From assembly GCA_043775825.1 (NCBI GenBank), contig JAYVRX010000047.1, positions 7,027 through 71,026 of the forward strand: a DNA stretch of 64,000 bases, given 5' to 3'. The notes beneath the pieces are model-generated. The model had not been told where the DNA came from. It saw nothing but the letters and a program-made list of their open reading frames with translations, and did not search any database. The translations under genes and the position numbers were made by a program. Positions within the stretch are counted from its first letter, which is position 1. Every line of letters starts with the position of its first letter. The DNA comes from Deinococcales bacterium. GTDB lineage: Bacteria > Deinococcota > Deinococci > Deinococcales > JAAFIG01. Shown here in pieces: positions 1 to 64,000 of the stretch.

Positions 1-1
1 G

Positions 2-883
2 CAACTCTTAAAGTATGACACCAACTACGGCAAGTACCCGGGTGTGGTCGGCAGCGACGATCAGAACATTATTGTGGACGGCAAAAAAACCCGTATTTTT
101 GAAGAGCGCGACCCCGCCAAGATTCCTTGGGCGGACATGGGCGCCCAAATCGTGATTGAAAGCACTGGGCGTTTCACCAAAGCCGAAGCCGCTCGAGCAC
201 ACATTACGGGTGGTGGCGCGAAGAAAGTTATTATTTCTGCCCCAGCCAAAGAAGAAGACATCACGATTGTCATGGGCGTCAACGAAAACAACTACGATGC
301 CAGCAAGCACCACATTATTTCCAACGCCAGTTGCACCACCAACGGACTTGCCCCAGTCGCCAAAGTCTTGTTCGACAAGTTCGGCATTGAAAAAGGTATT
401 CTGACCACCGTTCACGCCTACACCGCCAGCCAAAGCCTGGTAGACGGTCCTCGCGGCGACCCCAGGGACAATCGCGGCGCAGCCATGAACATCGTGCCGA
501 GCAGCACTGGCGCAGCTCGAGCCGTGGGCTTGGTCATTCCAGAGCTTCAAGGAAAATTCACAGGCATGGCGTTCCGCGTTCCAGTCAGCACGGTTTCAGT
601 TGTCGATTTCACCGCCATTCTGGGTAAAGACACCACCGTCAATGAGATCAACGCCGTCATGAAAGAAGCCGCTGAGGGAAGCTTGAAAGGCATTCTCGAG
701 TACACCGAAGAACCACTGGTCAGCATTGACCTGAAGGGCAACCCGCACTCGAGCATCTTCAGTGCGATGGAAACCCTGGTCTTGGGCGGAAATTTTATCA
801 AGGTCGTCGCTTGGTACGACAACGAATGGGGTTACAGCAACCGCGTTGTAGACCTTGTGAAGCACATCTCCAAGACCCTGTAA
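2..883 (+). CDS. gap: Glyceraldehyde-3-phosphate dehydrogenase (5'-truncated by window edge)
   Basis: The frame-2 translation is open from nt 2 ([14 protein letters not shown]...) and continues into ORF 44..883. It has the SNASCTTN active-site motif and the [10 protein letters not shown]-terminal motif. Confidence 0.95.
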
Positions 884-920
884 GCATTCACAAATTTGAG
901 GAAAAAAAATGTTCTTTCTA

Positions 921-968
921 CCCTCATCCCCGACCCTTCTCCCAACATCAGGAGAAGGGAGTTTTATT
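921..968 (-). repeat. REP-like hairpin element, copy A (family AATAAAACT-CCCTTCTC..GAGAAGGG-TYGGGGATGAGRG)
   Basis: Plus strand reads ccctcatccccgacccttctcc-caacatca-ggagaagggagttttatt. In this orientation a hairpin plus TTTTATT follows the gap stop, so it may act as a terminator. A degenerate related stretch (gtgggagagggtagtgag..gggtgaggg) lies at about 1005-1050. Confidence 0.75.
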
Positions 969-1100
969 CCCTTACACGGCTAGGCTCGAGGTTTTTATTC
1001 TTCTTCCTGTGGGAGAGGGTAGTGAGTTTGCTCGCCGGGTGAGGGCTTCAAGTGAAGTAAAACGCGTTATTCTCGAGATAACCAATTTTGGAGGTTCAAT

Positions 1101-2264
1101 ATGAAGAATTTAGAATCGTTGGATGTTTCAGGCAAACGCGTTTTGGTGCGTGTGGATTACAACGTGCCAATCGAAAATGGTGTGATCGAAGATGACACCC
1201 GAATCACAGCGAGCCTACCGACTGTTAATTACCTGCTCAGTCACGGCGCAAGTGTGATTTTGATGTCGCACCTTGGGCGACCAAAGGGCGTGGATGACAA
1301 ATTCCGTCTCGCACCAGTCGCGGCGCAACTCGAGAAAGTGCTGGGTAAACCCGTTAAATATATTGCTTCAAAACCCGCCAGCCTCGAGACGGCAAAAGCT
1401 TTAGAAGGTATCAAACCTGGCGAGGTGGCGTTACTCGAGAACGTGCGTTTTGAATCTGGTGAGGAGAAAAACGATCCTGAACTGAACCGTGCACTCGCTG
1501 CCTTGGGCGATGCGTTCGTGCTTGATGCCTTCGGCAGTGCTCACCGTGCGCACTCGAGCGTGTCGGGTGTGGCGGGTTTGCTGCCGCACGCTGGCGGTAT
1601 CTTGCTCGAGGCTGAAGTCAAAGCACTGGGTAAGCTGACTGAAAATCCTGTCGCGCCGTACATTGTGATTATCGGCGGGGCGAAAGTTTCGGATAAGCTC
1701 AAAGTCATTGAAAACCTGCTGCCGAAAGTAGACCGAATGCTGATCGGCGGCGGCATGGCGTACACGTTCGTCAAAGCCACTGGCGGCAACATCGGCAAGA
1801 GTATTCACGAGGACGATTACCTCGACACCGCCAAACGCCTGCTCGAGCAATACCGGGGCAAGATCGTATTGCCAAGCGACACCTTGGCAGGCGATGCGTT
1901 TTCTAACGACGCAAACACCAAAGTTTTTGCGACCAATGACATTCCCGACGACTGGGAAGGTATGGACATTGGACCCGAAAGTATTAAAGCCTTCTCGAGC
2001 GCCCTTGAAGGTGCAAAAACCGTTTTTTGGAATGGACCAATGGGCGTCTTTGAATTTGAGAAATTCGCCACCGGCACAAACGCCATTGCCAAAGTTGTCG
2101 CCGAACTCCAAGGCGCGTACACCGTGATTGGCGGCGGTGACAGCGTTAGCGCAATTCATCAAAGTGGACAAGCCGACAAGATCAGTCACATTTCCACCGG
2201 TGGCGGCGCGAGCCTCGAGCTTCTCGAGGGTAAGATTTTGCCTGGCGTTGCCGCATTGGATTAA
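1101..2264 (+). CDS. pgk: Phosphoglycerate kinase
   Basis: Full-length 387 aa with typical PGK motifs ([27 protein letters not shown]). SD ggagg lies 7 nt upstream of the ATG. Confidence 0.97.
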
Positions 2265-2301
2265 TGCTTTTCGCCCTGTTTGGAAAACAATATTCTCGCT
2301 T

Positions 2302-2359
2302 CTCGAGAAATCAATAAAACTCCCTTCTCTCCTTGGAGAGAAGGGTTGGGGATGAGAGG
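2302..2359 (+). repeat. REP-like hairpin element, copy B
   Basis: ctcgagaaatcAATAAAACTCCCTTCTCTCCttGGAGAGAAGGGTTGGGGATGAGAGG. Its flanks match copies at 921, 44174 and 56497. The stem carries compensatory differences between copies. Confidence 0.8.
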
Positions 2360-62130: not shown

Positions 62131-62139
62131 TCTGGTTTC

Positions 62140-62985
62140 ATGACAAAATTTGGGGTGGTCGGAGCGGGTCAGATGGGTGCAGGCATCGCGCAGGTGGCAG
62201 CTTTGAGCGGTTTTGAGGTTGTGCTGCGCGATGTCGAAACTCGGTTTCTCGAGCGTGGAAAAAGTATTATTGAAAAGAGTTTGGATAAATTTGTCGAAAA
62301 AGGCAAACTCGAGCTTGATGATCGCAACGCCGCACTGAGCAAAATTCAGTACACGACCTCACTCGAGGATTTTGCGGATTGTGATTTGGTGGTTGAAGCG
62401 ATTCTCGAGAACAAGAATTTAAAACTCGAGTTGTTCCAGAACCTTGGACGGATTGTCAAACCGAGCGGGATTCTTGCCAGCAACACCTCGAGCATCCCAA
62501 TTACGGAACTTGCCACGGCATCAAACAGACCTGCGCAATTTATTGGAATGCACTTCATGAATCCTGTGCCGCTGATGGCTTTGGTTGAGGTGATTCGCGG
62601 GTATTCGACCTCCACTGAAACGCTCACATTCACACTCGAGACTGCCAAAAAAATGGGCAAAACGCCAGTGCAGTGCAATGATTTTCCTGGTTTTGTCAGC
62701 AACCGTATTCTGATGCCCATGCTGAACGAGGCGATTCAGTGCGTGATGGAAGGCGTTGCCGAACCCGAGGCGATAGATCAGATCATGAAACTCGGTATGA
62801 ATCATCCGATGGGTCCGTTAACGCTTGCCGATTTTATTGGTCTTGACACCTGCTTGGCGATCATGAAAGTGCTGCATGAAGGCTTGGGTGACGATAAATA
62901 CCGTCCGTCGCCGTTGCTACGGAAAATGGTGCAAGCTGGGTTATTGGGGCGCAAATCCAAACGCGGTTTTTACGAGTATGATTAA
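62140..62985 (+). CDS. hbd: 3-hydroxybutyryl-CoA dehydrogenase
   Basis: [14 protein letters not shown] Rossmann start, with NTSS, HFMNPV and GFVSNR motifs. Confidence 0.93.
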
Positions 62986-62988
62986 CCC

Positions 62989-63216
62989 ATGACACTCGAA
63001 CGCATTACCGTAAATCCAAACAAAATGGGTGGGAAACCGTGTATTCGTGGCATGAGAATTACAGTTGGTACAATTGTGGGATTGATTGCCAGTGATCTAA
63101 GTACCGATGAAGTGCTCGAGTTGTACCCACTTTTAGAACGTGAGGATATTACAGCCGCTTTGACGTATGCAGCATGGCGTTCTAAAGAATACGAAGTCGA
63201 AGTTGGATCAGTTTGA
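62989..63216 (+). CDS. DUF433-family antitoxin-like protein
   Basis: ITVNPNKMGGKPCIRGMRITVGTIVGLI...ELYPLLEREDITAAL. Confidence 0.85.
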   Translation: MTLERITVNPNKMGGKPCIRGMRITVGTIVGLIASDLSTDEVLELYPLLEREDITAALTYAAWRSKEYEVEVGSV

Positions 63217-63587
63217 AATTGTTGATTGATGTTAACCTCAGCCCAAGATGGCGTGATTTTCTTAAAGAACACAGCATTGAAGTTCTGCTGTGGGCAGATG
63301 TTGGTAGTGTTGATGCTGACGACATTGAGATCATGCAGTACGCTCGAGATCATGGTTTTGTGATTTTCACTAATGATCTTGATTTCGGGCATTTGTTGGC
63401 TGTGACCAATCACAACACACCCAGCGTGATTCAAATTCGGACAAACTTACTAATTCCCAAACACGTTGGGAAACTGCTGTTAGAAGCATTGGTTCAGTTT
63501 CAGTTCGAGTTGGAATCTGGTTCACTGGTGACAATAGAAGACCAAAAACTACGAGCACGAGTGCTACCCATACAACCACGGAATTAA
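63213..63587 (+). CDS. DUF5615 / Mut7-C-like PIN-fold toxin partner of DUF433
   Basis: MKLLIDVNLSPRW...IFTNDLDFGHL. 4-nt overlap with the DUF433 gene. Confidence 0.8.
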   Translation: MKLLIDVNLSPRWRDFLKEHSIEVLLWADVGSVDADDIEIMQYARDHGFVIFTNDLDFGHLLAVTNHNTPSVIQIRTNLLIPKHVGKLLLEALVQFQFELESGSLVTIEDQKLRARVLPIQPRN

Positions 63588-63652
63588 ATCGTATTTTTTG
63601 AGATTCTCGAGCATGGTTCTTCAAACCTTTGAACTTGTTAAGATTCACTATC

Positions 63653-64000
63653 ATGTTTTCCCTTAATTCTGACCAAACCGCGATTCTCGAGATGGTGAAA
63701 GACTTTTGCAAGTCCGAAATCGCGCCGCTTGCCGCGCAGTATGACCGCTCGAGCGAGTTCCCGTGGGTGCAGTTGCGTAAACTTGCCGAGATTGGTTTGC
63801 TTGGCGCGATGATTCCCGAAGAACTCGGCGGTTCGGGGCTTGATTGCCTGACTTACGCCTTGTGTCTCGAGGAAATCAGTGCGGCGGATGCCAGCGTGGG
63901 TGTGATTGTCAGCGTCACCAATGGTTTACCACAGCAAATGCTCTTGAAGTACGGGTCACTCGAACAGCAACAAAAATTCTTAATACCACTGGCAAAAGGC
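63653..64000 (+). CDS. Acyl-CoA dehydrogenase (3'-truncated by window edge)
   Basis: Manual translation: MFSLNSDQTAILEMVKDFCKSEIAPLAAQYDRSSEFPWVQLRKLAEIGLLGAMIPEELGGSGLD...CLEEISAADASVGVIVSV. This is a typical ACAD N-terminal domain, open to nt 64000. Confidence 0.88.
   Translation, partial: MFSLNSDQTAILEMVKDFCKSEIAPLAAQYDRSSEFPWVQLRKLAEIGLLGAMIPEELGGSGLDCLTYALCLEEISAADASVGVIVSVTNGLPQQMLLKYGSLEQQQKFLIPLAKG

Follow-up and report, generated by a model that had tools for sequence, protein, structure and literature searches.

What would write the same six-base palindrome over and over, in genes and between them, along a stretch of bacterial chromosome? The stretch (hereafter the window) is the 64,000-nt segment analyzed from a Deinococcales bacterium (GenBank assembly GCA_043775825.1, contig JAYVRX010000047.1, positions 7,027 to 71,026), and the palindrome is CTCGAG. 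At a G+C content of 50.4%, base composition predicts 15.8 copies; the exact count is 437, equivalent to 6.8 per kb and an enrichment of 27.6x. CTCGAG is the most frequent hexamer of the window. The next ten are mostly its own overlaps (GCTCGA 185, TCGAGC 175) and the best hexamer unrelated to it reaches 86 copies. The sites are spread evenly: each 4 kb contains 20-36 of them, and neighbors lie 146 bp apart on average. The analysis establishes a DNA-level, sequence-specific and lineage-specific directional force acting on the whole hexamer. As a feature, the field of sites reads as follows:

1..64000, no strand assigned, dispersed CTCGAG field: 437 sites, 377 inside open reading frames (ORFs) and 60 fully non-coding

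An earlier sequence-only reading of this DNA had counted sites by hand (23, 25 and about 95 in parts of the window), extrapolated to some 400 and estimated an excess of about 25-fold. The hand counts match the exact ones, and the hyper-abundance is real and stronger than claimed. The motif was also likened to HIP1, the highly iterated palindrome of cyanobacteria, and CTCGAG is indeed a genuine iterated palindrome of this kind, being the top word, codon-independent, dispersed and clade-wide.

The size of the excess depends on the background model. Markov models predict 10.7 copies (order 1) and 24 (order 2), and once the motif is masked from the background these expectations fall to 6.3 and 4.6, giving an enrichment of about 95x. 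A Markov comparison had been proposed in the sequence-only reading, and at low orders it bears out the enrichment; at maximal order it expects 376 copies (observed/expected 1.16) and does not discriminate. The maximal-order model was rejected as a test, as the motif's own 5-mers absorb the signal: CTCGA and TCGAG scarcely occur outside CTCGAG.

Could the excess be a by-product of codon usage, of amino acid composition or of translational selection on Leu-Glu, or else a repeat element or an assembly artefact? The Leu-Glu reading frame does hold 63% of the coding sites. In 39 coding sequences (CDS; ORFs of at least 200 aa), 335 copies fall as 211 CTC-GAG (Leu-Glu), 50 xCT-CGA-Gxx and 74 xxC-TCG-AGx. 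Shuffling synonymous codons within each gene leaves 38.2 ± 5.9 copies (z = 50), and the excess holds although the shuffled codon pool is itself inflated by CTCGAG. This control refutes the codon explanation, and the earlier claims that codon choice is reshaped and that amino acid composition alone is insufficient stand. CTCGAG spells 211 of 276 Leu-Glu dipeptides (76%); context-free codon use would give about 3%, since elsewhere only 11% of Leu residues are encoded by CTC and 29% of Glu residues by GAG. All three frames and the non-coding DNA are enriched, and synonymously usable positions in the two other frames are occupied at 47% and 49%. Outside ORFs, 60 copies in 6.9 kb (8.7 per kb; ORFs have 6.6 per kb) lie about 50x over non-coding base composition. 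As for repeats, the 16-mers centered on the 437 sites are all unique, which argues against a REP- or MITE-like (repetitive extragenic palindromic or miniature inverted-repeat transposable) element; 86% of sites lie inside ORFs and no 16-mer is common to any of them. The trait recurs in independent JGI, ENA and NCBI assemblies, against an artefact. There is hardly any chance that an explanation of this group is correct.

The pressure reaches the proteins. Leu-Glu is the most over-represented dipeptide, with 277 copies against 109 expected (2.5x), while Glu-Leu stands at 0.95x; Ser-Ser is over-represented 1.66x. CTCGAG thus overrides codon choice and also alters amino acid sequence. Phosphoglycerate kinase (Pgk) has 10 Leu-Glu dipeptides, against 3-7 across 17 orthologs, and four of the nine sites in its gene lie where these orthologs carry other residues:

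1101..2264, + strand, pgk: nine sites, seven as CTC-GAG (Leu-Glu) and two as xxC-TCG-AGx (x-Ser-Ser)

These site counts agree with the earlier description of pgk. That of gap was likewise accurate: both CGA codons sit in GCT-CGA-GCx, and the remaining Arg codons are CGT, CGC or AGG.

Which part of the hexamer does the force recognize? Relative to codon-usage expectation, CTCGAG is about 50 times commoner than its synonymous one-off neighbors CTCGAA and CTTGAG, and the whole hexamer is preferred about 50-fold over any one-off neighbor, in synonymous coding and in non-coding DNA alike. One-off transitions at positions 1/6 and 2/5 lie 2-4x over the motif-masked background, a result replicated in seven relatives. 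In the window and the same relatives the central transitions (CTTGAG/CTCAAG) are at 1.1-1.2x and transversions at about 1. The central CG is thus the most strictly kept part, as its transitions lack the excess of the outer positions. TTCGAG/CTCGAA is the commonest near-miss in the window, and a 5-methylcytosine (m5C) methyltransferase of Halorubrum specific for CTCGAG shows off-target activity at this very pair (PMC8112702). Together with palindromic flanks, described below, the near-miss spectrum looks like the tolerance profile of a dimeric DNA-recognizing protein.

The sequence-only reading had suggested a bias resembling very-short-patch repair as a driver. Acting alone, such a system would combine an m5C methylase of the inner C with a Vsr-like endonuclease and correct T:G to C:G in CT(T/G)GAG, turning CTTGAG and CTCAAG into CTCGAG. 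That these two, alone among the one-off transitions, show no 2-4x excess, either in the window or in the seven relatives, speaks for a contribution of this sort. The quantities do not fit it as the only cause. In a mutation model (a 4096-state hexamer Markov model comparing two cases of bias), a T:G to C:G bias at the center only saturates at 3.2x and empties CTTGAG/CTCAAG almost to zero, whereas a bias on all 18 neighbors (gains multiplied and losses divided by 5-10) yields 25-98x with neighbors near 1. The observed 28-95x with CTTGAG/CTCAAG at 1.1-1.2x matches the whole-hexamer case, and repair bias on the central C alone is insufficient given its modeled ceiling. Gains through the four outer positions or through amino acid replacements would also go unexplained, and the window contains neither a Vsr nor a C5 methylase gene. 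Very-short-patch repair as sole driver is therefore very improbable, and the weaker form of the idea, a special status of the central transitions, is what survives. Depletion of one-off neighbors, the check put forward with it, is not seen: the central pair lies slightly above background and the outer transitions well above it.

Is the trait confined to this genome? Among species representatives, the closest Pgk sequences belong to Deinococcus metagenome-assembled genomes at 70-76% identity. The PheT protein is about 50% identical to those of named Deinococcus, Deinobacterium and Marinithermus; one homolog at 58% is labeled 'Deinococcales bacterium'. Its gene served as the anchor:

20462..22882, - strand, pheT: 23 CTCGAG; anchor for finding relatives and for testing site conservation

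Homologs of PheT at 90, 88, 70, 69, 60, 58, and 57% identity led to eight related loci (two of which carry the same 70% homolog) from independent JGI, ENA, NCBI and Logan assemblies, one of them a 5.09-Mb contig. CTCGAG is the top word in all eight, at 15-42x across G+C contents of 46-64%. In the seven analyzed by codon, Leu-Glu is over-represented 1.9-2.8x and is written CTCGAG in 58-82% of cases. Individual positions are kept as well. Of 114 sites aligned with locus L081 (85.6% nucleotide identity), 94 (82%) are retained; for control hexamers matched in codon phase the figure is 42%. Three of the four loci at about 68% identity keep 53-74% of sites, against 11-14% of controls; the fourth, L083, keeps 28% against 11%. 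Non-coding sites are kept in 13 of 17 cases against a background of 40%. The enrichment is thus clade-wide and old, and its positions are conserved far above background.

Where sites do differ, change appears stepwise. A three-way alignment has 43 shared and 40 variable sites, and 17 of the 48 sites differing from L081 are accompanied by an amino acid difference. At variable sites, fast-evolving synonymous positions show recodings such as TTG-GAA to CTC-GAG or AGG to CGA. Differences of 3-4 nt are in excess there, which had raised the idea that the whole motif is written in one concerted event; this was rejected, as most such differences are stepwise synonymous recodings. Parsimony over window positions 18764-27889, with locus L082 as outgroup, assigns 10 losses and 2 gains to the window lineage and 5 losses and 6 gains to L081, although sites gained in parallel at shared usable positions could make losses look more numerous than they are. 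The loss-heavy window lineage fits its somewhat lower enrichment (27.6x against 35-37x).

What agent could maintain such a state? The preferred reading, to which a probability of about 40% is given, is a methylation-marked HIP-type site kept by strand-biased mismatch or recombinational repair, a ratchet of the type proposed by Elhai, possibly reinforced by selection. A newly arisen complete CTCGAG would become methylated, and a mismatch correction or recombination repair step would then favor the strand with the complete, modified site. Fixation would hence favor changes that create a site and disfavor those that destroy one, in each case several-fold relative to neutral changes. The force would be weak but genome-wide and equal in coding and non-coding DNA; it would act first through synonymous recoding and then through tolerated amino acid replacements, and imported DNA would slowly be converted to the CTCGAG-rich state. 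Direct selection on sites may add to the ratchet. The recognizing agent is most probably a lineage-specific DNA protein, a solitary or always-on methyltransferase; the methylation, the protein involved and a repair bias rather than selection are what we infer here. The ratchet would explain why the force is equally strong inside and outside genes and why imports are converted slowly, as well as the dialects, the patchiness and the contrast with avoiding lineages considered below. HIP1 and alternate HIPs track specific matching methyltransferases (Elhai 2015, PMC4390886), and the dialects and patchiness in Deinococcota match that pattern.

Several observations weigh against this reading. Scans of essentially all window ORFs with Pfam and NCBIfam detected no DNA methylase, Vsr, nicking or restriction enzyme, and the relatives' loci likewise lack such an enzyme except for an unrelated inserted module in L081 (C5 methylase and Bpu10I-like endonuclease). 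Metagenome contigs probed with M.TaqI (query sequence identical to PDB 1aqj) gave loci of the Thermus type and unrelated ones only, and CTCGAG was as abundant as in the window in none of them. Elhai's ratchet is predicted to saturate at about 1 per kb, the range over which mismatch repair works (PMC4390886), and the observed density of one site per 146 bp is far above this, with interference between sites only within about 15 bp. Direct selection per site, finally, predicts conservation and stationary frequencies equally well.

That last point introduces the most serious competitor, in which selection acts directly on each CTCGAG as the target of an abundant protein that binds DNA or structures the nucleoid, with no methylation or repair bias. 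A function of this kind was proposed for HIP1 by Xu et al. (PMC5861425), who argued for selection on that motif. Conservation of site positions over background in coding and non-coding DNA suits such a protein, as do a near-miss hierarchy resembling protein recognition and the density of the sites. The flanks suit it too: a weak palindromic consensus places A at -3 and T at +3, and G at -1 and C at +1, with T at +3 in 51% of non-coding flanks against a background of 28%. Spacing adds a footprint-like signal. Usable positions 6-15 bp from another CTCGAG are filled at a rate of 0.33 (window) or 0.39 (relatives); farther away the rate is 0.56-0.72. In the window a longer gradient extends to about 60 bp, but the relatives do not reproduce it, and only the effect up to 15 bp holds.

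This short-range interference fits a protein footprint and the avoidance of short mRNA hairpins alike, and close pairs do occur as hairpins in non-coding DNA. Lost sites are not consistently compensated nearby: compensation within 60 bp is marginal against L081 (P = 0.02) and absent against L082. Each of roughly 35,000 sites per genome would moreover need a small effective fitness gain, enough to change proteins, and the reading comes with no candidate protein. On this balance, direct selection as the whole explanation is rather unlikely.

The hairpins just mentioned are few. The sequence-only reading held that CTCGAG builds terminator stems and pointed to three sites within 25080-25130 as a 5' untranslated example. 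Those three exist, at 25084, 25100 and 25128, the last lying between a Shine-Dalgarno-like AGGAG and the ATG of a gene resembling major facilitator superfamily (MFS) transporters. Stems with two copies each are found at about three places:

15960..15997, + strand, terminator-like hairpin after a PIN-domain gene: stem AAAGACC-CTCGAG / CTCGAG-GGTCTTT with two copies, then a T run

6306..6337, - strand, terminator-like hairpin: 14 pairs around two CTCGAG copies, with a third copy at 6291

25081..25108, no strand assigned, hairpin in the leader of the MFS-transporter-like gene (start 25136): 9-11 pairs with two CTCGAG copies

The first of these has a predicted fold of -35 kcal/mol (for a folded segment of 76 nt). 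Terminator stems therefore hold for these individual cases and fail as a general property, as terminator-like hairpins as a class show no excess over shuffled sequence in the window.

How does CTCGAG behave in DNA of recent arrival? The window is ordinary chromosome, with gap, pgk, tpiA, proS, efp, pheST and genes for sulfate and nitrate/nitrite assimilation, and glycosidase genes and several toxin-antitoxin genes are also present. Stretches with the appearance of recent acquisition contain few or no sites, as these low-GC genes show:

6384..9218, - strand, low-GC gene (0.43): 2.8 sites per kb; holds the longest site-free gap, 7384-8482

32500..33060, - strand, low-GC ORF (0.38): zero CTCGAG; looks recently acquired

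17129..17530, - strand, PIN-domain toxin gene (GC 0.42): zero CTCGAG

The restriction-modification insert of L081 behaves similarly: its 2 kb contain 2 CTCGAG, while the locus averages 7.6 per kb. It occupies positions 1093-3149 of that locus, has a GC of 0.41 and comprises genes for a C5 DNA methylase and a Bpu10I-like endonuclease; it separates genes whose window counterparts have other genes between them. Three PIN-domain toxin genes of the window lie within 5 kb (15552-15947, 17129-17530 and 19968-20387), with a tRNA gene nearby at 16026-16097. This neighborhood is variable, as relatives have different toxin-antitoxin genes at corresponding places.

Palindromes other than CTCGAG are strongly avoided. 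Twenty-two of the 64 palindromic hexamers are absent from the window (e.g., GGATCC, CTGCAG, GAGCTC, GTCGAC, CGATCG) and the remainder, CTCGAG excepted, together reach 0.47 of expectation. Among tetramers, GGCC is down to 3 copies where about 250 would be expected, and CCGG and CTAG are present in 29 and 38 copies. Avoidance this extreme points to a long history with many restriction systems.

Beyond the clade, CTCGAG-core palindromes form lineage-specific dialects with a patchy distribution. High-GC Deinococcus loci (L001-L011) contain 0-2 CTCGAG each; five of them (L005, L006, L008-L010) contain none where codon usage predicts about 19, and Leu-Glu is written CTGGAG or CTGGAA. Such avoidance suggests XhoI-type restriction in that lineage. 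D. peraridilitoris is neutral (7 copies, 7.5 expected). Just outside the window's clade, locus L209 (JGI 3300080851; PheT 53% identical) has 1 CTCGAG where 6.8 would be expected; among its palindromic hexamers TGGCCA ranks first (43 copies, 6.3x), TTGGCC has 44 copies, and the locus may carry a different iterated palindrome. The cultured Deinobacterium chartae (L211, GCA_014202645.1) has 74 CTCGAG in 22 kb (9.7x), 36 of them as the octamer CCTCGAGG (43x). Its locus also holds a BREX-like cluster with a BrxC/PglY-like ATPase, a UvrD-like helicase and an MmeI/Eco57I-type methylase.

The same octamer dominates in Thermus. All 22 TCGA in 20 kb of Thermus composti (L014) are CCTCGAGG, and in 15 Thermus-like metagenome contigs (among L212-L235) encoding TaqI-like methylases TCGA is under-represented and 151 of 245 copies (~60%) lie in it. 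There the octamer reaches about 1 per kb, some 25x over base composition, a HIP1-like density. The window's clade shows the opposite of the Thermus and Deinobacterium dialect: CCTCGAGG is its rarest CTCGAG context (4 of 437 in the window; 12 of 1314 pooled; clade loci L081-L087 and L208), and C or G on one flank alone is common.

It is possible, although the proposal is tentative, that Deinococcota own a family of CTCGAG-core iterated palindromes of an origin independent of HIP1, with sites written by a lineage-specific methylation-repair or recombination system that overrides protein constraints. Its dialects would be CTCGAG at 5-9 per kb in the uncultured Deinococcales clade and CCTCGAGG in Deinobacterium chartae and in Thermus, where it accounts for most surviving TCGA. 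The sequence-only reading knew of no described equivalent of CTCGAG, and the literature searched here, with incomplete coverage, likewise yielded no description of CTCGAG or CCTCGAGG hyper-abundance in Deinococcota.

Viral DNA carries the motif too. Among IMG/VR contigs (L088-L207) retrieved by scanning for three clustered sites, a selection that biases the sample, many have CTCGAG at 7-20x and their flank dialects differ: L143 has mostly CCTCGAGG, and L174 and L116 mostly GCTCGAGC. L104, L132 and L124 resemble the window's clade in that CTCGAG is enriched, GGCC is low and palindromes are avoided. Comparison of the CTCGAG-rich viral contigs with GenBank phages by blastn gave zero matches.

Might the motif then spread through DNA exchange? 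In a molecular drive by transformation or recombination, conspecific DNA bearing the motif, perhaps methylated, would be taken up, protected or recombined more readily, and alleles with the motif would spread. Natural competence is known in genera of Deinococcota. Acquired genes are site-poor, the avoidance of palindromes implies heavy foreign-DNA traffic and many restriction systems, and inverted CTCGAG pairs stand in terminators, as is the case for the DNA uptake sequences (DUS) of Neisseria and the uptake signal sequences (USS) of Pasteurellaceae. Methylated HIP1 boosts transformation more than 100-fold in Synechococcus PCC 7002 (bioRxiv 10.1101/2024.09.10.611283), and HIP1 abundance correlates with DNA-uptake genes (bioRxiv 10.64898/2026.06.24.733823). 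However, six palindromic bases offer little specificity, and at one site per 146 bp fragments of transforming size are already multi-copy, such that extra sites should gain little. Several viral contigs carry CTCGAG at 7-20x, whereas uptake sequences are usually rare in mobile elements. Thermus thermophilus is not known to show a sequence preference in DNA uptake. A drive of this kind is accordingly improbable.

The likeness to DUS and USS extends to a genome-wide excess tolerated in coding DNA at some protein cost, to clade-specific dialects and to rarity in newly acquired genes. Those sequences are asymmetric, 9-12 bases long, present at about 1 per kb and read by a known receptor; CTCGAG is a palindromic 6-mer, seven times denser, with a weak flank preference. 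The Dcm/Vsr system of E. coli, in which a methylation-linked repair bias raises CCWGG and lowers CTWGG, resembles CTCGAG in the relative scarcity of the central transitions. It is a few-fold effect that depletes the T:G-derived neighbor, while CTCGAG stands at 28-95x without absolute depletion of that neighbor.

The closest counterpart is therefore sought among the HIPs. Taken in the broad sense of Elhai 2015 (PMC4390886) and Xu 2018 (PMC5861425), who describe over-representation of 15-300x, the HIP-type features tested are all found in CTCGAG: it is the top word, occurs in all frames and between genes, is independent of codon usage, is clade-wide and is conserved in position. Like HIP1 (GCGATCGC), it is a short GC-containing palindrome, dispersed and part of no larger repeat; other palindromes are strongly avoided around both, and one-off variants of both are skewed to the outer positions. 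It is not HIP1 in the strict sense (GCGATCGC with its CGATCG/GATC core), since CGATCG occurs 0 times in the window. CTCGAG also differs in phylum, in sequence, in length (6 bases rather than 8) and in its measurable distortion of the proteome, with Leu-Glu at 2.5x. Its 6.8 per kb compare with 0.5-2.5 per kb for the high-frequency HIPs of Elhai (PMC4390886). HIP1 has known cognate methyltransferases, and none was identified for CTCGAG in the window or the relatives' loci.

The alternate cyanobacterial HIPs (GGCGCC in Calothrix PCC 7103, rCCGGy and GCsGC; Elhai 2015) come nearer in form, being hexamer-sized palindromes at 15-20x that replace the usual motif by lineage. This replacement parallels the differences between CTCGAG, CCTCGAGG and TGGCCA among Deinococcota loci. 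The alternates are sporadic, known from single genomes and each accompanied by a matching methyltransferase, whereas CTCGAG is stable across a deep clade (PheT identity down to 57%, GC 46-64%).

What follows for the genomes concerned? A single hexamer can bias codon-usage statistics and distorts dipeptide statistics, and CTCGAG may affect gene prediction and k-mer-based binning of genomes from this clade. Its density is also a barcode for contigs of the clade, and perhaps of phages, in metagenomes. More broadly, hyper-abundant palindromes have so far been studied almost solely in cyanobacteria, where it is disputed whether HIP1 is a side effect of repair bias, helps to structure the chromosome or serves as a signal for transformation. 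With an independent case from a second phylum there is a natural replicate for telling these ideas apart. CTCGAG is 3-14 times denser than HIP1 and visibly rewrites proteins, and the sister lineages span the range from saturation to complete avoidance. If Deinococcota do own an independent family of such palindromes, the culturable Thermus and Deinobacterium would make the 30-year-old question of HIP function testable in a second phylum.

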